DNA of 64,000 nt from Candidatus Poribacteria bacterium (lineage in GTDB: Bacteria; Poribacteria; WGA-4E; PCPOR2b). Location: positions 704,001 through 768,000 of the forward strand of contig OZ242326.1 of assembly GCA_965208325.1 (NCBI GenBank). The letters are read 5' to 3'. Shown here piece by piece: positions 28,510 to 63,671 of this stretch (positions are counted from its first letter, which is position 1; each line of letters starts with the position of its first letter). The translations under genes were made by a program, and so were the position numbers. Under the pieces are notes generated by a model. That model saw only the letters and a list, made by a program, of their open reading frames with translations. It was not told the origin of the DNA and did no database searches.

Positions 28510-30501
28510 CTATTCTGCATCGACCTTTATTGACAACTCCTCCAACTGTTCGTCAGAGACCCCGGATGGTGCTCCCGTGAGCAAGCATAATCCTTTTTGC
28601 GTTTTTGGAAACGCGATGACTTCGCGAATATTCTCCTCGCCGGTCATTAGCATTATTATGCGGTCCAGCCCGGGTGCAATTCCAGCGTGCGGCGGTGTGC
28701 CGTGTTGCAGGGCTTTTATGAAATAACCGAATCGCCTTTCAACTTCTTCGGGACTAACGCTCAAAAGATCCAACACCTTCTGTTGAATGTCCCAACGATG
28801 AATTCGGACACTGCCGCTGCAAATCTCGATGCCGTTGATGACGAGATCGTAGTGCTGGGACCGGGCAGCACTAGGATTGGTATCCAAAAGCGGAACACTC
28901 TCGTCAGCGGGCGCTGTGAAGAGATGGTGAAAGGGTTCGTATCGCCGTTCGTCGTCGTTCCATTCGAACAGCGGATAATCGACAATCCAGAGGAAGTTGA
29001 AACGCCCCTCATCAATGAGGCCGAGCCGCTTGCCTAGAAGAAGACGAAGGTTTGATAGCGCGTCTGCAACGACCCTTGGTTGGTCAGCGACGAACATCAT
29101 TATGTCTCCCAACTTCGCTCCCATCCGCTGCGCTACCGCCGTGAGGGTGTGTTCCCTGAAAAACTTTACGATGCTGGACTCGAATCCGTTCTCGGTTACC
29201 TTTATCCACGCCAATCCTCTCGCTTTATAGATTGCGGCGAAATCGGTTAAGTCTTCAATCTCTTTCCTAGAAAACGCGGCTCCGCCGGAAACGGCGATGC
29301 CTTTTACCTGTCCATCTCGTTCCAAGGCGCCCTTAAAAACCTTGAAGTCACAGTCGGCGACGAGGTCGGAAACGTCGGCGAGTTCCATCCCAAAGCGAGT
29401 ATCCGGTTTATCGGTGCCGAACCGCGCCATTGCGTCGTCGTAAGCGAGGCGTGGAAACGGAATTTCCACGGATATGCCCGAGGCTTCCTCAAAAATCCGC
29501 TTCATCAAGCCTTCAGTGACTTCAAGGACATCGTCAACGGTCGCAAAGGACATCTCAAAATCGAGTTGGGTGAACTCAAGCTGGCGATCAGCGCGCGTGT
29601 CTTCATCCCGGAAGCAGCGGGGAATCTGGAAGTAGCGATCTACGCCGCTCATCATGAGAATCTGCTTGAACTGTTGCGGCGATTGTGGAAGCGCATAAAA
29701 ATTGCCCGCGTTAAGACGGCTTGGCACCAGCACATCCCGTGCACCTTCAGGTGTACTATTCATCAGGATTGGGGTTTCGATTTCAAGAAATCCCTGTTCG
29801 TCCATGTACTTCCGGGCAGCAAGCATAGCCTTGTGCCGGATGGCTAAATATTTCTGCATCTTGGGGCGACGGAGATCGATGTATCGGTATGTCATACGAA
29901 TCTCTTCGTCGGTGTCGATGTCGTCCTCAACCAGAAACGGCGGCGTTTTGGCAACGTTCAAAATTTCCAATTCTTGTGTTGCGACCTCAATCTCGCCCGT
30001 TGGGAGGTTGAGGTTTATTGTGCCCAAGTAAACGCTAACTTCGGTGGCAGTCATCTTTATAACGTAGGTTCGTTTACTTGCCCTGTCAGTCATCAGCCAC
30101 TTGTCTACTTCGCCTCGGTTCAATATCTCAACATTCTGGGAAACCGGGTGGCCGTTTGCCTTGAACGCACCTCGTAATTCCTCTGAAAAATGCAGAGCCG
30201 CCAAATCGGTTTCATGTTCTAATCCGAGGTTGAATAATAGGTCGCCCTCTAACCGTTCTCGAACTGTGCCGCTCACGGCCAACACAAACTCACCGCGAAT
30301 TTGGTTTGCAACCTTATGGGCTTCAGCATCAATCTTGGGATCGAATACGACTTGTGAAATTCCCGTCCGATCCCGTAAGTCTGCGAAAATCACGCCGCCA
30401 TGGTCTCGACGGCGAGCAACCCATCCAGTTAACTGCGCCGATTTACCGGCATCGGCGAGCCGCAACTCTCCACAATAGTGCGTCCTCTTCATGTCAGGCA
30501 T
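28510..30501 (-). CDS. aspS: Aspartate--tRNA ligase (probably non-discriminating) with a 74-aa insertion
   Basis: RTHYCG, RRDHGG, TPEGARD, ALPQSPQ, CFRDED.RADRQ.EFTQLD, GSVRIH, PPHAG.A.GLDR and IREVIAFPK motifs. Confidence 0.97.
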   Translation of the reverse strand: MPDMKRTHYCGELRLADAGKSAQLTGWVARRRDHGGVIFADLRDRTGISQVVFDPKIDAEAHKVANQIRGEFVLAVSGTVRERLEGDLLFNLGLEHETDLAALHFSEELRGAFKANGHPVSQNVEILNRGEVDKWLMTDRASKRTYVIKMTATEVSVYLGTINLNLPTGEIEVATQELEILNVAKTPPFLVEDDIDTDEEIRMTYRYIDLRRPKMQKYLAIRHKAMLAARKYMDEQGFLEIETPILMNSTPEGARDVLVPSRLNAGNFYALPQSPQQFKQILMMSGVDRYFQIPRCFRDEDTRADRQLEFTQLDFEMSFATVDDVLEVTEGLMKRIFEEASGISVEIPFPRLAYDDAMARFGTDKPDTRFGMELADVSDLVADCDFKVFKGALERDGQVKGIAVSGGAAFSRKEIEDLTDFAAIYKARGLAWIKVTENGFESSIVKFFREHTLTAVAQRMGAKLGDIMMFVADQPRVVADALSNLRLLLGKRLGLIDEGRFNFLWIVDYPLFEWNDDERRYEPFHHLFTAPADESVPLLDTNPSAARSQHYDLVINGIEICSGSVRIHRWDIQQKVLDLLSVSPEEVERRFGYFIKALQHGTPPHAGIAPGLDRIIMLMTGEENIREVIAFPKTQKGLCLLTGAPSGVSDEQLEELSIKVDAE

Positions 30502-33452: not shown

Positions 33453-36400
33453 TTACGATTTCGGTTGCATCGCTGCCTGAATCTTGCGCCGTTGCTCTTG
33501 AAGTTCCGCAACACTGGGGGCAAGGCGAAGCGCTTCGGCATTAGCTTTCAATGCATCGCCATATCGCTTCTGTGACAAGTAAAAATCCGCCAAATCTTTG
33601 TGTAACAGCGGCTCGTCCGGTGCAATGCGAATTGCACGCTTGTACGAATCAATTGCTTCGCTAATTGCCTTCTCGCCCGCATATATATTGCCTAAAATAT
33701 AATGCCCACGCCACAAATTTGGGTTAACTTCCAAAGTCTTCTCTGCATACTGGCGCGCTTCCGGCATCATGTTTTTAAGACGGTAGATAGATGCCATAGC
33801 CGCGAATATTTCAGCGGGAAGATTTGAATCTAACGCCTCAAGGCGTTGGTAAGTCCGCAGCGCTTCATCATTGCGTTCTTGGCGTTCATAAATAGGTCCG
33901 AGTAGGAGGTAAAAGTCTAGACGATTTGGTTCAAGTTCAATCGCAGTCTCAATGGCTTTAGCGGCCTCGTTTAATTTCCCTTGGCCTTCGTTGATGACCG
34001 CGAGTTGAACGTAGCCTTCCGTATCGCGAGGATTAGTTCGCAAGGCCTGTTTCACGACCTGTTCAAGTCGCTTGAGCTCGTTTTGCTCCTCCTTACGAAC
34101 CAATCCGGCTGCAACACCAAGATGGTATCGAATCACCTCGTCGCCGGGATTAATTGCCAATCCACGGTTAAAATGGCCAAATGCGTCCTCATATTCTCCC
34201 GCGACATGGGCAAGTTGGCCTTGAATGAGATTCTGAGTGGCGTCGAAGTAAAGGGCCGCCCGTTTTCTCACTTCGGTTTTCTCCGCCATCGATTTACCAT
34301 AATTCTTCAGGTACGGGTTGACGCGTTCGCGGTGTTTCGCCAGTGCTGAAATAATTCTCCTACTGGCTCCTACAGACTGGTTTGTACGGATTAACCCCAA
34401 ATTCGGACGGCTATCCGAATAAACAGCGCCGTATCCGGCATAGTTTCGGAGAGCATCCTCACTCATCATAAACGAATCCAGCAACGACATACCGTCAAGG
34501 TCATCCCCTGCGAGCGCATCGCTGATGTTTGCAATTTGTGTTCTGCCCATAAAGTCTACAAAATCAATCTTGAGTCGTTCAGATGTGCCAATCAAGACGG
34601 CGAAGTCAGGCGAGTATTTGTACCATAGTGTTGTGTGAGGAAAAACTTCAAGCATTGTCCTCAAAGCCATTTTGAAATGCACGTCGGAGTTTAACCGGAG
34701 CGGAAGCCACTGGCATAAAATACCATCTTCGTTCAAAGCCCGTTTGCAGAGTCGGTAGAATTCTGTCGTGTTGGTTTGCGAATACCATGCCGCGGGAGAG
34801 GATGTGAAGGACCTCACTGAGATGATGTCGTACTTTTCGCCCGTTACTAGCAGATGGTTCCGCTCGCCATCAATCGTCAACTTGAATTGGGGATTGCTGA
34901 GAATATGGTGATTTACATTAGCGAAATGTGCGCGCGTTTCTTCGACGACATCTTTTGAAGATTCGACCGTATCCACATAAACGCCATGTTTCGTCATTGA
35001 GTAGGCTGTTAAGCCCATGCCGAACCCAACTACAAGTGCACGTTTCGGCTCAGGATGTAAGAGTACCGGGAGGTGGGCGATTAGACGATGTGAAGGAGAG
35101 TCCCAGCGGGAAGTATCAGCAATCTTACGCGCACCTATATACAGCTGATGGGCTCCCTTATCATCCTTTAGCACCGACACATCAGCATCAACGCCATGTT
35201 TTTGGGAAATGATTGTGCTGCCCACGCCTCGTGTGAGGTAGCCCGAATTGCTGATGAACAGAGGGTTATCTCCTGTGTATAACACAACCAGTCCGAACCC
35301 AACGGTAAGGATTACTCCACCGGCCGCTGTGCCATTAAGGATTTGCCTGGTGCGTACGGCGTTAGCTTGTGCTGAGAAAACCGTGGCGCAACCTAAAATC
35401 GCGCTCAGGGCCGATGTCAGGACAATGCCCGGACGAACGCCAATAAACGGCACAATGATGAACCCCGCGCAGAAAATTCCCGCGATTGCACCAACGATGT
35501 GAATCGCGCTGACGATGCCAATACTGCGCCCTAGTCGCGCGCCGTCGTGTGAGAAAATCCGCACTGCCATCGGAAAACACCCGCCAATCAACACTGCTGG
35601 AACAACTATCACGACCGTACACCCAAAAAGCGACGCAATCCCGCCGCCGATTGGAAGTAGTTCGCTCAGAATCGGTATCGACGCTACGCCAAAAATCCCG
35701 ATGGCAATCTGCATCAATCCGAACAAACTAAAAAGAGACTTAACGCGGTCAGTTACTCGAGCGAATAACATACTCCCGATAGCGATGCCAAACAGTAAGA
35801 CTGCCAAGAAAAATGTTGTCGCCGCAAAATCGAGCGAGTGCACCAAGGCACGCCTCCAGAGCATTGCATAAGTCATCGTGCAGAAGCCGGAGACAGCAAA
35901 TGCCAAGAAAGCTAACCGATTTGGCGCAAGCGGTTCGGTTGTATCTGGGCGAGATTCCGCGTGCGTTGCGGTTATATGCTTCTCGTCCTTAACACTCGAA
36001 ATACCACTTACCGACTGCCGAGGCAGCCCAAAGGCTACGGCTGCGGCAACCAAATTAATGCCCGCGCATAAATAAAGAGACGGCTGAACCCCTAAAGTTT
36101 GTAATAGGAAATATCCCACCGCGAGGCATCCGATGGCGCCGCCAAGCATCTTGATACCGTTGAGAACGCCGACGTGGAATCCAAGACCGTCCGCACTCCG
36201 CACGAAAACCCTGCACAACACAGGTAATGTGCCTCCCATCAGAATCGACGGGACAATCAGGACGAGAAAGGATAAAGCAAACCGAATGAACAAAAGCGAA
36301 TAGAACTCCCCATTAAGCGCGCGAAAGGCTAGAATGTGCGCGGCGTTTAGCACATTCAATAGCAATGGGGAGACAAGGGCAAATACACCGATACCTAATT

Positions 36401-36629
36401 CAAGAATAGCATATAACCGTAATGGACGGTCTTCACGATCCGCGGCCCGGCCAAAGTACAATGCCCCTACTGCTAATCCCGACATCAGTGCTATCAGCAC
36501 CGTGCTCACCGGCAGTGTCGTGCTGCCAAAGATCAGAGTGAGTTGGCGTATCCAGATTACCTCGTATATCAAGCCAATGGCACCCGCAAAGAGGAAGATT
36601 AGCCGCACAACCGGTTTAATGTTTCGCAC
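33453..36629 (-). CDS. Fused membrane domain / spermidine-synthase-like SAM-binding domain / TPR protein
   Basis: YEVIW.R.L.L.FG.T membrane domain, ALVVGFGMGLT, EFY...KRAL..DG..CQW, then multiple TPRs. Confidence 0.85.
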   Translation of the reverse strand: MRNIKPVVRLIFLFAGAIGLIYEVIWIRQLTLIFGSTTLPVSTVLIALMSGLAVGALYFGRAADREDRPLRLYAILELGIGVFALVSPLLLNVLNAAHILAFRALNGEFYSLLFIRFALSFLVLIVPSILMGGTLPVLCRVFVRSADGLGFHVGVLNGIKMLGGAIGCLAVGYFLLQTLGVQPSLYLCAGINLVAAAVAFGLPRQSVSGISSVKDEKHITATHAESRPDTTEPLAPNRLAFLAFAVSGFCTMTYAMLWRRALVHSLDFAATTFFLAVLLFGIAIGSMLFARVTDRVKSLFSLFGLMQIAIGIFGVASIPILSELLPIGGGIASLFGCTVVIVVPAVLIGGCFPMAVRIFSHDGARLGRSIGIVSAIHIVGAIAGIFCAGFIIVPFIGVRPGIVLTSALSAILGCATVFSAQANAVRTRQILNGTAAGGVILTVGFGLVVLYTGDNPLFISNSGYLTRGVGSTIISQKHGVDADVSVLKDDKGAHQLYIGARKIADTSRWDSPSHRLIAHLPVLLHPEPKRALVVGFGMGLTAYSMTKHGVYVDTVESSKDVVEETRAHFANVNHHILSNPQFKLTIDGERNHLLVTGEKYDIISVRSFTSSPAAWYSQTNTTEFYRLCKRALNEDGILCQWLPLRLNSDVHFKMALRTMLEVFPHTTLWYKYSPDFAVLIGTSERLKIDFVDFMGRTQIANISDALAGDDLDGMSLLDSFMMSEDALRNYAGYGAVYSDSRPNLGLIRTNQSVGASRRIISALAKHRERVNPYLKNYGKSMAEKTEVRKRAALYFDATQNLIQGQLAHVAGEYEDAFGHFNRGLAINPGDEVIRYHLGVAAGLVRKEEQNELKRLEQVVKQALRTNPRDTEGYVQLAVINEGQGKLNEAAKAIETAIELEPNRLDFYLLLGPIYERQERNDEALRTYQRLEALDSNLPAEIFAAMASIYRLKNMMPEARQYAEKTLEVNPNLWRGHYILGNIYAGEKAISEAIDSYKRAIRIAPDEPLLHKDLADFYLSQKRYGDALKANAEALRLAPSVAELQEQRRKIQAAMQPKS

Positions 36630-57152: not shown

Positions 57153-58109
57153 TTAACCAATCCGATATTTACCCAACCCGAACATGGCGTTTTTGCCGAT
57201 GTGTAGGAGTTCCCCTAGCACAACAAACGGCATAAACATCGCTAATTCACCTTCATACGTCACATTACCAACCAGTCCGTCGAACTGCGCCTTCTTATCC
57301 TGCCGCGAGGTATGTTGTGTCACATCTTTCCACTCAAGTGAGGTTTCGGTCGTCTCAACTGTCTTCGCCTTTTCAATTAGTTCTTTAAAGTCGATTTCTA
57401 GCGATTCGCCGCAATGGAAATACGCCAGCGCCGAGATGCGTTCAATCAAATGCTTCCAGAAGATGTGGAACGGCAGCTTATCCGCTAACTTTCCGTCATG
57501 CGCAATCCGTGTTGGTGCCAGTAGGTGGAGCGTCAAGGTATTCAACGAGTCAAAACGCGCAGCGAGCAATGATAAGGCTTCCCTCTGAATCTCGGCGAAT
57601 CTGAGCGCGTTATCAAAATTGTGCACCATCTGCGTGTCGCTATCATAGACCGATTCTCTGCTGTCAGTCAGGACTTGGGTTAACTGAAAGCGTCCACGCT
57701 TCTTGCCAATGCCACTCTCGCCCAAGTCGCGGAAACTGACTAAAAAATATGGGAGGTGATCAATAGCGCGGCCGATGAGTGTAAGTTGAAATGCGAAGGA
57801 TTCGCCGCGGCGGTATTCGCCTTGCGTGCCCAACGGGTCAATTACGAACGGCCTGGGCACATCGTCGTAAGCTGGGAATTGATCCGCGCCCTCGAAGGGG
57901 GCGGTTTCGAAGTTGTAAGGGTAGGAACAGACTGTATTGAGGGTGCATTCTCGGCAGTCAATGGATCCTTGCGTGCAGACCAACTTTCGGAATGCCGGTC
58001 CGAATCCGGCCTGGAGGGTAGAGCCGGTGTAAGGCGGCATCATAATTGTCGATCTCGCCGTTAGAATCACATGGTAACGCGCAAGACGGAAGTTTTGGAG
58101 TAAGCTCAT
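57153..58109 (-). CDS. cas6: CRISPR-associated endoribonuclease Cas6 (stand-alone)
   Basis: G.TL..GFG, Cx5CxxCx5C.Y...FE, VPRPFV, GIGKKRG and C-terminal G-loop GELLHIGKNAMFGLGKY. Confidence 0.88.
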   Translation of the reverse strand: MSLLQNFRLARYHVILTARSTIMMPPYTGSTLQAGFGPAFRKLVCTQGSIDCRECTLNTVCSYPYNFETAPFEGADQFPAYDDVPRPFVIDPLGTQGEYRRGESFAFQLTLIGRAIDHLPYFLVSFRDLGESGIGKKRGRFQLTQVLTDSRESVYDSDTQMVHNFDNALRFAEIQREALSLLAARFDSLNTLTLHLLAPTRIAHDGKLADKLPFHIFWKHLIERISALAYFHCGESLEIDFKELIEKAKTVETTETSLEWKDVTQHTSRQDKKAQFDGLVGNVTYEGELAMFMPFVVLGELLHIGKNAMFGLGKYRIG

Positions 58110-58324: not shown

Positions 58325-58510
58325 ATACATCATATCTCGTACCGGGTAGGACTGAAAATTAGTGCATGAATCAACCGATTCTAACGTTGATTTTACCGCT
58401 GTCCGCTAAGCGGAGTCCACCGAACCGTCGCAGTATTTTTGAATTAGCGTTGACCGAGCCCGTCTCAACTCATCCTGGACGTTTTTGTACATTTGAACAG
58501 GAGGAATTTT

Positions 58511-59887
58511 ATGAACAGCGGCGAAAAAGCAATTCGTTGGTTCAGAATTAAATTGGCAATGTTAATGGTACTAAAAAAGATGCTCGCGGCCGCAACGGTT
58601 TGGGGGTTGCTTTGGGGCACCGCGATTATCGTGCTCCGCGCAACTATCGGGATGCCGCGTTTCACGCTGCTGGTCGGCGTTATCGGTCTATCAATTGCCG
58701 TAATCGTTGCTATTATACTCGCGTTGCGTAAAATTCCGAATCGGATTGCCGTAAGAGCTAGCCTAGACAAATACAGCGGCTCCGGCGGGCTTGTGATGGC
58801 GGCAGAAACTGAAGCACTTGGAAAATGGTCTGAACAAATGCCGCGGATCCACCAGCCGCGTTTCCGTTGGCGTGGGGGCATTTCTTTAATCCGCTTTGCA
58901 GGGGCTGCCGTATTCTTATTTATTAGCTTCTTGATTCCGCAACGGTTTGTCGAAATCTCTAAAGCACACCCTCTTGATATCAGCGAAGAGGTCAACAAAT
59001 TGGCGGACGGACTTGATGTGCTCAAAGAAGAAGAGATTATAGAATTAACCCAGGCGGAAGCGCTCGAAGAAAAACTGGATCAGCTGCAAACGGAGGCTGC
59101 AGGCGAAGATCCAGCCAAGACATGGGAAGCGTTGGATCATCTCACGGATGTCATCTCGCAAGAATCCACGGCCGCTGCGGAGGACGCCCTGAACGAAACC
59201 GAAAGCTTGATGGAGGCAGAAACCCTGTCTGATGCGTTAATGAACGATGCATCAGAGATGGAATCCCGTCTGTTAGCGGAGGCAATGACGGCGTTGTCCG
59301 GTTTGCTTCAGAAGGCGGGTGAAGAGAATGAGCTGCTCGCTGAACAGCTTTCAAATTTGGATGCCGATGCGGCTGAGTTTACGTCCGAGCAGCTTAAAGA
59401 AATCTCCGCGGCGTTGCGTCTTTCTAAACGAGAAATCATGGATCGCCTAGCGAAGCTTTATGAAGTAAACCTAATTGATTTGGAAACGCTGAATGCATGT
59501 GAGAAGCTTGGGGAGTGCAACAGCGATGGCCTTGCCGCTTTCCTCGCCGAAAACTCGGGACTCATGTCGGTATCCGATTGCGTCGGCGGTTGGTGTCGAG
59601 GCGGTATCGGACGCGGACCTGGCCATGCCCCCATGACCTGGACCGACGGCTCCACGGAGGAAGGTGCGGAGTTCAAGGAAGAAACTCTTCCACTATCGAA
59701 CATAGCGTCTCTAGAGGATAGTGAAATCTTTGGGGTTAGCGCGGCTGCACCGTCAATAGAGGCATCCAATCCGATAAAGCAATCGGCAGCACTCAATGGT
59801 GCGGCGGTTGGCGGCGGTTCATCCGTTACGCAAACCGTCCTGCCCCGCCACAAAGCGTCGGTTAAACGATATTTTGACAGACCGTAA
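58511..59887 (+). CDS. Membrane-anchored acidic coiled-coil protein of a MoxR-associated locus
   Basis: RBS GAGG and ATG 58511; 3 TM helices, long Glu/Ala helical region, GRGPG and terminal P..K.SV.RYF. Confidence 0.75.
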   Translation: MNSGEKAIRWFRIKLAMLMVLKKMLAAATVWGLLWGTAIIVLRATIGMPRFTLLVGVIGLSIAVIVAIILALRKIPNRIAVRASLDKYSGSGGLVMAAETEALGKWSEQMPRIHQPRFRWRGGISLIRFAGAAVFLFISFLIPQRFVEISKAHPLDISEEVNKLADGLDVLKEEEIIELTQAEALEEKLDQLQTEAAGEDPAKTWEALDHLTDVISQESTAAAEDALNETESLMEAETLSDALMNDASEMESRLLAEAMTALSGLLQKAGEENELLAEQLSNLDADAAEFTSEQLKEISAALRLSKREIMDRLAKLYEVNLIDLETLNACEKLGECNSDGLAAFLAENSGLMSVSDCVGGWCRGGIGRGPGHAPMTWTDGSTEEGAEFKEETLPLSNIASLEDSEIFGVSAAAPSIEASNPIKQSAALNGAAVGGGSSVTQTVLPRHKASVKRYFDRP

Positions 59888-60374
59888 TGCGTCGTTGACG
59901 TAAGCATAGTTTTATTGACTCGCAATTAAATTTACACGGTAATTTTTGAACCTACCGAAACGCGATGATGCCAGCCATCATATCTCCTACTAATGTCACT
60001 AACAAAACACGGGGCGCTAGGTGTTGTATTGCCGGTGGTATGCCGCGTAAAGAAGCCAAATTGTTTCAAAAGGCTATTTCAATTTCGATGATGATAGATA
60101 CTCATGGTTAGCTTTCTTGATATAGATACTCTAATTCACATCAGCCGTCGGAATTGGCACTATCCGGCAATCCAGTGGCGAGTGCGATAGGCTTTACTGT
60201 AGGTTAAAACTATCACCCTCCTTTATTAGCCAGTTGATCCGCTTTTGACTAAGGGCGGAATCCTCGATTGAAGCGCAACGCGCAAGTAATATCTCTTGAC
60301 TGGTAAAGTTCTTCGCAAAAATTTTGGATTTTCCGGACAGCTTATTCACCCTCTCACTCCGCACCGAAGATATA

Positions 60375-61430
60375 ATGCCAGATAACGAGAAATCCGAAAG
60401 CCTTCTTCAACCTGAAGAACTGAGGCCCGCTGTCGATCTTGCGGCGAGAGCACTTGCGGAACTCGACCGAATCCTGCTCGGTCGTTCCGATTTGCATCGC
60501 ATGGTACTCATCGGAATTCTGAGTCATGGACACATTCTGCTTGAGGGTGTGCCCGGTGTTGGTAAAACTGCGCTTGTCAAGGCGTTGGGTCAGCTACTTA
60601 ACCTCGAATTCAACCGCGTACAGTTCACGCCAGACTTGATGCCGGGCGACATTGTCGGTACACATATCCTGCAGCAATCCCCGGAGGGGAGTCGGGAAAT
60701 GACGTTCCAAGCGGGACCAGTTTTCACGAACATCCTGCTCGCCGATGAGATTAATCGCGCTTCTCCGAAAACCCAATCCGCATTGCTTGAGGCAATGCAG
60801 GAGCGTTGCGTCACGCTGCTTGGGAATACTCGCCCGTTGCCGAATCCTTTTTTCGTCCTCGCCTCCCAAAACCCAATCGAATTGGAGGGAACGTACCCGC
60901 TCCCCGAAGCACAGTTGGATCGATTCCTGTTCAAACTAATCGTCCCAAGCGCCGACGTGGCGGTGCTCGACGACATTATCTCAACCCGCCGGCGCGGCGA
61001 ACCGCCCGTACCCGCATGGTCAATGAGCGCCGAGGAACTGCATCAGCTATTCGACGTGATGGATAAAATATTTTTGCCCAAGCCCGTTTCGCGGTACATT
61101 TCACGTTTGACCGCATCTACCCATCCAAATTTTCCTGAGTCTACCGATGATGTTCGAAGATACGTTACCTACGCCGCATCGCCGCGAGCCGCGATAGCGA
61201 TGGCGGAGGCGGCGCGAGCCTCTGCTTTGATTTCGGGCCGCCCAACGGTTGGATTTGAAGATGTGAAATCGGTCGCTTCGTCCGTGCTGAATCATCGCGT
61301 AATTTTGAATTATCAGGCCCGCTTCGATAGTGTGGATACCTTCGCAGTAGTAAGTAGTCTTCTTGACTCCCTTGACGAAACTAACATGAATCTGCCCGAC
61401 GACGTTGAGATTCGATTCGAGTCAGAGTGA
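60375..61430 (+). CDS. moxR: MoxR family AAA+ ATPase
   Basis: LEGVPGVGKT, RVQFTPDLMPGD, LADEINRA.PKTQSALLEAM and QNPIE.EGTYPLPEAQLDRF motifs. Start moved to ATG 60375. Confidence 0.93.
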   Translation: MPDNEKSESLLQPEELRPAVDLAARALAELDRILLGRSDLHRMVLIGILSHGHILLEGVPGVGKTALVKALGQLLNLEFNRVQFTPDLMPGDIVGTHILQQSPEGSREMTFQAGPVFTNILLADEINRASPKTQSALLEAMQERCVTLLGNTRPLPNPFFVLASQNPIELEGTYPLPEAQLDRFLFKLIVPSADVAVLDDIISTRRRGEPPVPAWSMSAEELHQLFDVMDKIFLPKPVSRYISRLTASTHPNFPESTDDVRRYVTYAASPRAAIAMAEAARASALISGRPTVGFEDVKSVASSVLNHRVILNYQARFDSVDTFAVVSSLLDSLDETNMNLPDDVEIRFESE

Positions 61431-61556
61431 GTTTGGATCGTGAACCATCGTAACTAGAATTTGGCAATAGCTGAAAATCAACCCTCATTTAATACCAATT
61501 GATACAAGACAGCGTATCACTTTTGCCAAAACTGACATAATCGGAGGAATCTACCA

Positions 61557-63671
61557 GTGAAGTATTCTACGCCTTATTCCATCCTCATTCTAACCGCCGT
61601 ATGGCTGTGTCTTACCAATTCTAGCACGTACGCACTGAAAGAGTTTGGCGATATTATAATTACACCGGAACTCACCCCTAGCGGCAGTAGTTTCCACGGA
61701 TATGCGGAATACAGAATTAATGTATCCAATCGCTCGCCTGACAAAGCGCATCTCGTAACATTGGCGTTGCCGAAGACCAATTACGGAATGTTTGGCAATC
61801 AAATCCGAAAAATCACCCGTTCAGTAATTGTCGGCCCCTCTGCTACTGCCCGGGTCGCCTTGTTTCAGCCTTCAGTAAGCCTAGATGGACACGGTCTAGA
61901 AGTCACCATAGACGGTAAAGTGCAAGATGACGCGGTTCCACTGTCTATCGGCAATCACGGCCGCCACGACAACGTTTTCATGCCTCACCACCCGGCGGGA
62001 ATGCCGCACACGATACGTAGCAGCAATCCTGAGATTCGAATTTTGATAAGCCGCAATGTGGACACGGCTGATTTGCATTCCCACGTTGGAAACCAACTCA
62101 ACACTTCGAGGTCAACAGGCGGTTTCTCACCATCTGGAGGTGTACCTCACCCATTTGCGCCGCCAAGATCGGGAACCGGCTATGAAACCATTGACCTCGG
62201 ATTCCCGGTTTCAGCGTGGAGCAGCAATTGGCTCGGTTATTCTCGATACGACAGCGTCATTGTCACAGGCGATGACGTGAAAATGATGCCGGCGGATGTT
62301 CAATCCGCGTTGTGGCGCTACGTGGAATGCGGCGGCGCTCTACTTGTATTGGGAGGACGGGAACTTCCCAATATTTGGGGGTTGAAGGCCGCCGCCGATA
62401 CCTCCGAATTTGTTAACTATTATGCCGGTTTCGGTCAGTGTATCGTGACGGCTGACGTGAATACATTTCACTTAACGCCGGAGCAGTGGTCTGAGATTGT
62501 GTCTTCGTGGTTGAAGACTGAAAATCCGCGGAGAACCAGCCGGACGGTTGAGGGTGCTAACGCGATGTTTCCGGTGGTGGAAGGTTTAGGGGTTCCTGTG
62601 CGCAGTATGTACCTATTGATGCTTCTTTTCGCCGTATTGATTGGACCGGTGAACCTCATAGTACTGTCGCGAAAAAAACGCGGCATCTGGATGCTTTGGA
62701 CAGTGCCGGCAATCTCGCTTATTACATGTCTCGCTGTCTTCGTGTACGCGACGTTCGCCGAAGGGTGGGAACGACACGCCCGAATCGAAGCACTGACACT
62801 ACTCAACGAAAAGACTCACCGCGCCACAACGATTGGTTGGACCGCGTTCTATTCAGCGCTCACGCCATCCGACGGTTTGCACTTCGGCTATGATACTGAG
62901 TTGACGCCCCAAATTGCCTCTACTCAGATGGCAGGAACGCCTCGCTCGGTCGACTGGACGCACGACCAACACCTAGAAAGTGGTTGGATGACTGCGCGAG
63001 TACCGGCGCATTTCATGCTGCGCAAGAGCGAAGTGAGGCGTGAGCGTGTCACGGTTAGACGGGGAACAGATAAACGCCTAAGCATTGTTAACGGTCTGGG
63101 CGCTGTCATAAAACAGTTCTGGTTGGCGGATTACGATGGTGAAATCTATTTTGGAAAGGACATTCCTGCGGGCGCGGAAGCGGAATTGAGTGCGCGTACG
63201 CAATTGCGTCTAGGCAACCCGGGTGGAGTTGATGGGACATTTCAATTTGAACTATGGGATTCATCCGTCAATATGGACCTGGATTCCGGGGAAATTTCCC
63301 CATTGCTAAGGGACGAGATGAAATGGCGAGGCGAGCCGCTCTCCGATGATGTTTCCATAGCCGTTTCAAAGCACGGTTATGAGTGGGTAATAACGGATCG
63401 CCTCTCGAATCGGACTTACACCATTAAGGCGGACACTATCGACGGCCCACTCCGAATTCATAGTAACGCAGCGCCTATTTTGCGGGGTATATTTGCCTCC
63501 GATGATTGGATTTACAACATCAATTTTCTCAAGGAAGCTCCGGTAAACTATCTCCGCCCCAACTGTTATATCGCAGAATTATCGTCTGCTCCATTTATTG
63601 AGGATGGTCTTCGAAACACGACAGAAAAAAGATATAGCTCGGTCGTTTATGGCATTTTGGATGTGCAATGA
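61557..63671 (+). CDS. Secreted/membrane hypothetical protein (class I glutamine amidotransferase-like central region) carrying a ~70-aa guest domain
   Basis: RBS GGAGG, signal peptide, W.GY..YD...AL..YV..GG.L.V.GG segment, two TM helices, and a segment similar to the AspRS insertion. Confidence 0.75.
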   Translation: MKYSTPYSILILTAVWLCLTNSSTYALKEFGDIIITPELTPSGSSFHGYAEYRINVSNRSPDKAHLVTLALPKTNYGMFGNQIRKITRSVIVGPSATARVALFQPSVSLDGHGLEVTIDGKVQDDAVPLSIGNHGRHDNVFMPHHPAGMPHTIRSSNPEIRILISRNVDTADLHSHVGNQLNTSRSTGGFSPSGGVPHPFAPPRSGTGYETIDLGFPVSAWSSNWLGYSRYDSVIVTGDDVKMMPADVQSALWRYVECGGALLVLGGRELPNIWGLKAAADTSEFVNYYAGFGQCIVTADVNTFHLTPEQWSEIVSSWLKTENPRRTSRTVEGANAMFPVVEGLGVPVRSMYLLMLLFAVLIGPVNLIVLSRKKRGIWMLWTVPAISLITCLAVFVYATFAEGWERHARIEALTLLNEKTHRATTIGWTAFYSALTPSDGLHFGYDTELTPQIASTQMAGTPRSVDWTHDQHLESGWMTARVPAHFMLRKSEVRRERVTVRRGTDKRLSIVNGLGAVIKQFWLADYDGEIYFGKDIPAGAEAELSARTQLRLGNPGGVDGTFQFELWDSSVNMDLDSGEISPLLRDEMKWRGEPLSDDVSIAVSKHGYEWVITDRLSNRTYTIKADTIDGPLRIHSNAAPILRGIFASDDWIYNINFLKEAPVNYLRPNCYIAELSSAPFIEDGLRNTTEKRYSSVVYGILDVQ

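Follow-up and report, generated by a model that had tools for sequence, protein, structure and literature searches.

An in-frame protein domain of Poribacteria as the very probable product of a small non-autonomous transposon with IS66/ISBst12-type ends

Rickettsia palindromic elements (RPEs) are small MITE-like repeats of about 105–150 bp that occur in frame within unrelated genes and encode a conserved peptide, and nearly half of them lie in ORFs according to the review that covers them (PMC10969869, PMC3184786). Other fusions of this type, in which frames encoded by a repeat are joined to host ORFs, involve BRE, RUP, BOX, ERIC, and Anabaena MITEs, and the passages that deal with them describe recent repeats of uncertain evolutionary stability (PMC3184786, PMC10969869). 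With regard to insertion sequences, the ISBst12-group element ISDge4 is described in its published account as having GTAACTG/GTGACTA ends, an 8-bp repeat, and one ORF of 449 aa (PMC12898284).

Here, we describe a small domain found inside unrelated proteins of Candidatus Poribacteria, which is very probably the ORF of a MITE, a non-autonomous transposon, ~214 bp long and bearing IS66/ISBst12-type ends, now present in this genome as in-frame fossils. The window is the whole 64,000-nucleotide stretch analysed (contig OZ242326.1, positions 704,001 to 768,000 of the forward strand), and window coordinates refer to its first letter.

The domain, its hosts, and its predicted fold

The window contains two host genes, whose features are as follows:

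60324..61430, + strand: MoxR-type AAA+ ATPase upstream of host 1 (PF07726, E 1.5e-61)
61557..63671, + strand: host 1, a 704-aa membrane protein of the MoxR locus, directly after the MoxR-type AAA_3 ATPase
63239..63461, + strand: element copy 1, 223 bp (one base plus 74 codons), encoding the guest domain in host 1
63231..63238, + strand: left 8-bp flank of copy 1, the expected target duplication, with a 2/8 match to the right flank 63462-63469
28510..30501, - strand: host 2, aspartyl-tRNA synthetase (AspRS) of 663 aa, with no other close aspS match in the genome
30028..30241, - strand: element copy 2, 214 bp, placing the guest domain in a loop between two anticodon-binding OB-fold strands
30242..30249, - strand: upstream 8-bp flank of copy 2, with a 4/8 match to the downstream flank 30020-30027

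Both hosts had been named in a preliminary description of the window, and both names hold: host 1, called a membrane-bound MoxR-locus protein, adjoins the AAA_3 ATPase and has two hydrophobic segments near residues 350 and 383 of its stop-to-stop frame, with no Pfam or NCBIfam family above cut-off, and host 2 contains the AspRS domains of Pfam (tRNA-synt_2, GAD, and OB fold), its closest relatives being titled Candidatus Poribacteria. The MoxR locus (window 58493-63671, +; also L019:881-3339) comprises a 464-aa membrane protein without a family, the ATPase, and the 704-aa host, followed by an apparent ABC ATPase and then a membrane protein; seven host 1 matches each were found in G008 and G013. 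A Cas6 gene (PF10040; window 57153-58109, -) lies between a 262-aa ORF without a Pfam match and this locus. A further gene (window 33453-36629, -), whose 1058-aa product joins an MFS-like membrane region to a spermidine-synthase domain and TPR repeats, is followed downstream by a nucleotidyltransferase/HEAT gene, hisS, a DUF2283 gene, and aspS.

The gapless alignment claimed earlier between the ORF at 61557-63671 (+) and the insert of AspRS (28510-30501, -) was reproduced by BLASTP, ungapped, with 21/51 identities and an E value of 9e-7. It is significant against shuffled controls: the Smith-Waterman score of the pair was 87, compared with 38.9 ± 5.0 (maximum 62) in 1000 shuffles. The guest domain has ~73 aa, exceeding the 51 aligned residues, and occupies 30025-30243 (-) and 63237-63464 (+); the span first marked in host 1 (63240-63461) coincides exactly with the part of the DNA element at 63239-63461 that is coding.

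Further copies had been predicted genome-wide. An iterated profile search of all stop-to-stop frames of the genome (4.71 Mb, one contig) reached convergence with 24 copies, all in frame and distributed over 20 unrelated ORFs, the best match below them (E 0.48) being the tail of a nested copy. A DNA profile (nhmmer) of the genome returned the identical 24 coding places and nothing further below E 0.02. In addition to AspRS, the hosts include sigma-54 (within the core-binding domain), a TamB-like protein, a histidine kinase, HEAT and TPR proteins, an ECF sigma/propeller fusion, RseP, O-antigen ligase, CtaA, an M23 peptidase, UPF0182, and DUF255. Amino-acid identity between these copies averages 31% (range 15–57%). 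Since their DNA identity averages only 54%, with a maximum of 64%, the copies in this genome are judged to be old, vertically inherited, and not currently moving, which corrects the earlier description of the module as mobile.

Comparison with insert-free relatives, as had been proposed earlier, revealed empty sites for both window hosts. The insert is present in 30/30 host 1 orthologues fetched and absent from 3/3 distant homologues fetched (31–36% identity), which come from two genomes without any domain copy. Among 56 AspRS sequences, the module occupies one site in 22 and is absent from 34, 18 of which are titled Poribacteria. A tree of 43 of the 56, built with one frameshifted carrier and 12 distant outgroup rows excluded, requires a single change (support 58/3, seen in 57% of bootstrap trees) and may be considered compatible with a single gain. 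In nine sequences, the AspRS insert diverges faster than its host, with 36–42% identity where the host has 84–86%. Together, the 24 in-frame copies and the insert-free homologues support the view that a small domain has spread by in-frame insertion into unrelated genes.

Structure prediction gave a confident fold for the domain alone (pLDDT 94.7), arranged as strand-helix-helix-four strands, and the full predicted AspRS places it between two strands of an intact OB fold (pLDDT 85–92). The domain had been called apparently unnamed, which agrees with the libraries searched: by sequence, it has no family in Pfam, NCBIfam, or PDB and no match in the ESM Atlas (best score 0.78), and no Pfam or NCBIfam family matches more than one of the 22 copies scanned. 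Foldseek returned no E value below 0.001 against PDB and BFVD and the best VIA-align Z was 4.4, although a missing family or fold match does not by itself show a new fold. Homology to IS66 TnpB, prompted by a similarity in topology, was tried and rejected (profile probability 0.4%, with a shallow two-sequence TnpB profile). Pooled dN/dS values were 0.11 for the insert and 0.08 for the host in AspRS (44 pairs, not independent), and 0.37 and 0.26, respectively, in the MoxR-locus protein (83 pairs, not independent), which points to purifying selection on the domain.

Ends, target duplication, and nesting of the DNA element

Terminal signals at the DNA level, which the preliminary description had suggested looking for, were found in better-kept copies on metagenome contigs as inverted ends with a direct repeat outside them. 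Junctions were taken from 100 full-length copies among 126 matches, merged to 64 distinct sites. The consensus left end GTTACTGTTTAG and the consensus right end, read on the reverse strand, GTAAATGTTTAG (both from the 64 sites) pair at 10 of the first 12 positions, and the best-kept single copies reach 11/13. Flank identity over the 64 sites peaks at 8 bp (0.484 versus 0.288 shuffled, z 10.2, 0/2000 shuffles), with weak side peaks at registers 9 and 11 (z about 3). All eight positions contribute (0.38–0.53, compared with 0.20–0.34 just outside), the signal stops at the element boundary, and flanks match at ≥6/8 positions in 15/64 sites versus 1.0 expected; one copy (L113) has a perfect 8/8 duplication. 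The same 8-bp duplication is detectable in this genome alone (z 3.9, 19 full-length copies). At the protein level, the 3 residues before the domain repeat after it (0.203 versus 0.070, z 14) in 220 distinct sites, a set that overlaps the 64 DNA sites at a few sites, and z is at most 2.4 at every other register from 1 to 7. End quality and duplication quality are not correlated (rho 0.14, p 0.28).

The commonest element length is 214 bp (27/64 sites), which together with the 8-bp duplication makes 222 bp, or 74 codons; the 3n+1 length itself follows from the boundary definition used. The element carries no transposase, and its single open frame is the domain, the other five frames having stops in 62–64 of the 64 copies. 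Ser at the element ends is encoded by AGY in 33/33 cases, an observation used solely to read the ancestral ends, as constraint and common descent are inseparable in this codon choice. Short length without a transposase, inverted repeats, duplications of fixed length, and multiple copies with both filled and empty sites are all observed, as is characteristic of a MITE, apart from young intergenic copies.

In the window itself, the ends of both copies are eroded. Copy 1 pairs at 2/13 inverted-repeat positions (2–3 of 13 for the window copies overall), and its target duplication is no longer recognisable. In AspRS, a Gly codon is found at positions 4-6 of both flanks in 20/21 carriers, and insert-free orthologues have one Gly at this place. 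As their own flanks are eroded (2/8 and 4/8), the transposon reading of the window copies rests on the family.

Several copies have themselves received copies. Nested-like adjacency was observed in 54/181 multi-copy proteins, and the complete pattern of a head, an inner copy, and a tail in 9/275 proteins, with breaks concentrated in three stretches of the profile (positions 20-24, 40-49, and 55-59), which fall in loops of the model or close to them. In this genome, the fusion of an ECF sigma factor and a Reg_prop beta-propeller (L010:1001-3208, +) contains three apparently nested copies, whose three nested junctions keep 2, 2, and 5 of the 8 duplication bases, and a SecA of 1388 aa (P0171) was read by eye as having several nested copies stacked at one site. 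Such nesting would fit mobile DNA for which earlier copies are harmless targets.

These features bear on two other explanations. Firstly, the domain could be an adaptive module for interaction or stability that ordinary recombination has spread and a shared function has maintained, as purifying selection near the host level and retention in 30/30 host 1 orthologues and in 145/151 genomes of the phylum might suggest. We regard this as very unlikely, considering that the hosts lie on both membrane sides and share no common pathway (sigma-54, AspRS, TamB, RseP, SecA, EF-Ts, TatC, YidC, etc.), that the most conserved domain columns are mainly hydrophobic or aromatic, that copies are split by other copies, and that 8-bp duplications are not made by ordinary recombination. 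Of the two options offered at the outset, the selfish coding element is supported by the inverted-repeat ends, the 8-bp duplication, the nesting, and a matching IS66-family element, and the shared interaction tag finds no support as the cause of the spread; a function acquired later by the domain is conceivable. Secondly, inteins are also in-frame guests in essential proteins, recognised by an N-terminal Cys/Ser, a C-terminal His-Asn, and a +1 nucleophile, and in-frame insertion into conserved, essential genes would be expected of an intein- or intron-like element that is excised at the RNA or protein level. This is extremely unlikely here: the column profile and flanks of 284 copies conserve neither a Cys/Ser start nor a His-Asn end nor a +1 nucleophile, there is no Pfam intein match, codon-level purifying selection extends across the insert, and copies are nested.

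An active MITE should leave intergenic, antisense, or out-of-frame copies, and their absence is among the observations that count against the MITE model. No such copy was found in this genome, where nhmmer matches the 24 coding copies and nothing else; in three high-copy genomes, each of the 98 matches falls in an open frame free of stops, and all 30 loci obtained by the DNA search also match at the protein level, whole genomes of the lineages with the youngest copies lying outside the reach of these copy searches. Among the 150 matches listed across the phylum (1785 more being unlisted), one has an internal stop, a single TAG at G003:C1:3352465-3352677, whose frame has the same length as the L013 host. 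Recent movement is suggested by one young pair elsewhere, 93% identical over 160 bp and located in different host genes. One DNA read run for the site of the young copy L113, possibly the source of the contig, contained no empty allele and no near-identical copy family.

A candidate mobiliser related to IS66

A scan with the end motif detected, downstream of aspS in a relative, an element of 231 bp whose ends are of the same type and which has a perfect 8-bp repeat. The motif occurs 40–272 times in five relatives, compared with 1–5 times for a reversed control, and marks non-coding MITEs of 153–420 bp; among 15 end pairs, repeats are 8/8 in 9, 6-7/8 in 3, and 4/8 or less in 3. The same ends also enclose an element of 1537 bp that encodes a single IS66-family transposase and has a perfect 8-bp repeat, the IS end being GTAACTGTTTAG. 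Its transposase is a single ORF of about 450–460 aa that matches NF033517 above cut-off. The IS is present in up to 11 copies per genome, with 8/8 repeats in 12/16 full copies, and its anatomy fits the ISBst12 group as described for ISDge4 (PMC12898284). This multi-copy IS and the burst of non-coding MITEs are represented by L280:1287-2823, L355-L379, and L187-L216, with 16–272 end matches per genome of the genus concerned (g7). Two other elements with GTAA-initiated inverted ends were also noted, one of 173 bp (L174:22-194) and one of 2256 bp around an IS66-type ORF (L166:451-2706).

Each consensus end of the domain-encoding element matches the IS end at 11/12 bases, is correctly oriented, and begins at the base where the duplication signal stops; because the IS was found via a pattern from the domain ends, the end match is partly by construction, and the 8-bp length and the boundary are its independent parts. 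Single copies match the IS end bases on average at 8.0 and 8.2 of 12. In the frame of the module, the left end of the IS reads G-TAA (stop), whereas the module has G-TTA (leucine), and this single difference makes read-through possible. The element interior has no consistent similarity to the IS or the MITEs; its derivation from the IS by deletion was considered and dropped, as only scattered 12-17 base matches to the L280 IS were observed.

The matching IS and the MITE burst are confined to the genus g7 (9/9 genomes, which include some of the relatives counted above), with background elsewhere among the 151 genomes, and this burst looks much younger than the spread of the domain. The g7 IS is therefore best considered a candidate relative of the mobiliser. 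This genome (G000, 95.6% complete) has no PF03050 match, no match to the L280 transposase, and no burst of IS-type ends; absence of the transposase is consistent with its copies being fossils. G061, a member of the same family as this genome, retains a fragment of the IS transposase with 78% identity over 85 aa.

Several IS families make 8-bp repeats, and the element may have been moved by a transposase of another family with similar ends and the same duplication length, the likeness to the g7 IS66 element being incidental. The confinement of the matching IS to one genus and the lack of interior homology speak for such a different mover. Even so, it is very unlikely, since both consensus ends match at 11/12, oriented and starting at the end of the duplication signal, and since the transposase remnant in G061 occurs in the family of this genome.

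Under the preferred MITE model, a transposase acting in trans would have copied the element to new sites while duplicating 8 bp of target, the duplications being visible as footprints and the enzyme presumed. The 3n+1 element and its duplication, 222 bp or 74 codons, would have restored the host frame, and a one-base change at the left end (in-frame TAA to TTA), at whatever point in the order of events, would have allowed one of the six frames to read through both ends. The compact fold predicted for the domain may have let insertions into surface loops, including those of earlier copies, leave the host working. Intergenic and out-of-frame copies would then have been purged or decayed, and in-frame copies, judging from dN/dS, would have been kept under selection to stay folded, so that every copy in this genome would now be an immobile fossil.

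Distribution, significance, and comparison with known systems

The domain was matched in 145/151 genomes of the phylum, with 1 to 25 matches each, and the six genomes without a match fall in two families; two further genomes have 39 and 41 matches. Searches of 1.84 billion cluster representatives yielded 2742 matches, with hosts such as SecA, an RNA-polymerase-like protein, EF-Ts, TatC, YidC, and ATP synthase c. One RNA-polymerase-like protein (P0094) has two domain copies and a third, longer insert ending in similar residues, and the two kinds of element may have their ends in common. Evidence for the domain outside the phylum is thinner: 3/401 genomes in the phylum of G171 match (contamination possible), and matching proteins are labelled Deltaproteobacteria and Planctomycetota. 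In addition, EMC6-arch family proteins contain two or three domain copies, and these hosts may be archaeal in origin, judging from the family name. No domain copy was found in IMG/VR viruses or INPHARED phages, end-pattern scans of viral contigs gave no convincing element, plasmids provided one weak match (E 8e-3), and no plasmid relative of the L056 MITE was found. Further hosts of the domain are MORN-repeat proteins (up to 11 stretches), TssG, and a protein of the tail-sheath family (P0004, P0027, P0066, P0038, P0198), which may offer a route between lineages.

A broader reading is plausible, though we would stop short of calling it probable: the module may be a self-propagating domain, that is, a transposon that survives through the fold it encodes, whose ends serve both as transposase sites and as codons of the first and last strands, and which is tolerated in loops. 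Such a domain would have entered core machinery (AspRS, SecA, sigma-54, TatC, YidC, ATP synthase c), landed in earlier copies of itself, and crossed into archaea; it would still be moving in sediment lineages and be one of several IS66-ended domain cassettes.

Domain gain in the middle of a protein is usually inferred after its DNA traces have vanished, and here inverted ends, an 8-bp duplication, a candidate transposase family, and a frame-opening base remain. Selfish DNA may be a route by which a new domain is added to essential proteins, and the proposal made for RPEs, that protein domains can originate from selfish DNA, can now be put to a direct test, with an enzyme that has a name and a substrate of 214 bp. 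Through this family, hundreds of insertion sites that core proteins naturally tolerate can be mapped; it also accounts for unannotated 74-residue stretches in Poribacteria proteins and may provide a natural insertion tag for protein engineering.

No paper on this domain family was found in full-text searches of a literature collection without most subscription journals. Compared with inteins, the element is likewise an in-frame guest in essential proteins, but it has no splicing residues, occupies many non-homologous sites, and is flanked by a target duplication. Ends beginning GT(A/T)A and an 8-bp target duplication are shared with the IS66 ISBst12 group and its MITEs, as far as the published account describes them (PMC12898284). 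Unlike ISBst12 elements, the Poribacteria element lacks a transposase, has an open frame through both ends, and is intragenic in every copy found; its interior is unrelated to that of the non-coding MITEs with the same ends. With RPEs, it shares in-frame insertion into unrelated genes; according to the RPE descriptions cited above, it is set apart by its length of ~214 bp, its restriction to ORFs, and a confidently predicted globular domain under measured purifying selection, as well as by nesting in itself, a span of most of a phylum, and a candidate transposase family. The other MITE-ORF fusions, in the accounts given of them, are recent repeats, whereas the Poribacteria insertions are old, common to several families, and diverged to 31% mean amino-acid identity within one genome. 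On this comparison, the kind of mechanism is already known from RPEs and in-frame MITE fusions, and what distinguishes the present family is a confidently predicted, selected globular domain, phylum-wide age, nesting, and a candidate transposase family.
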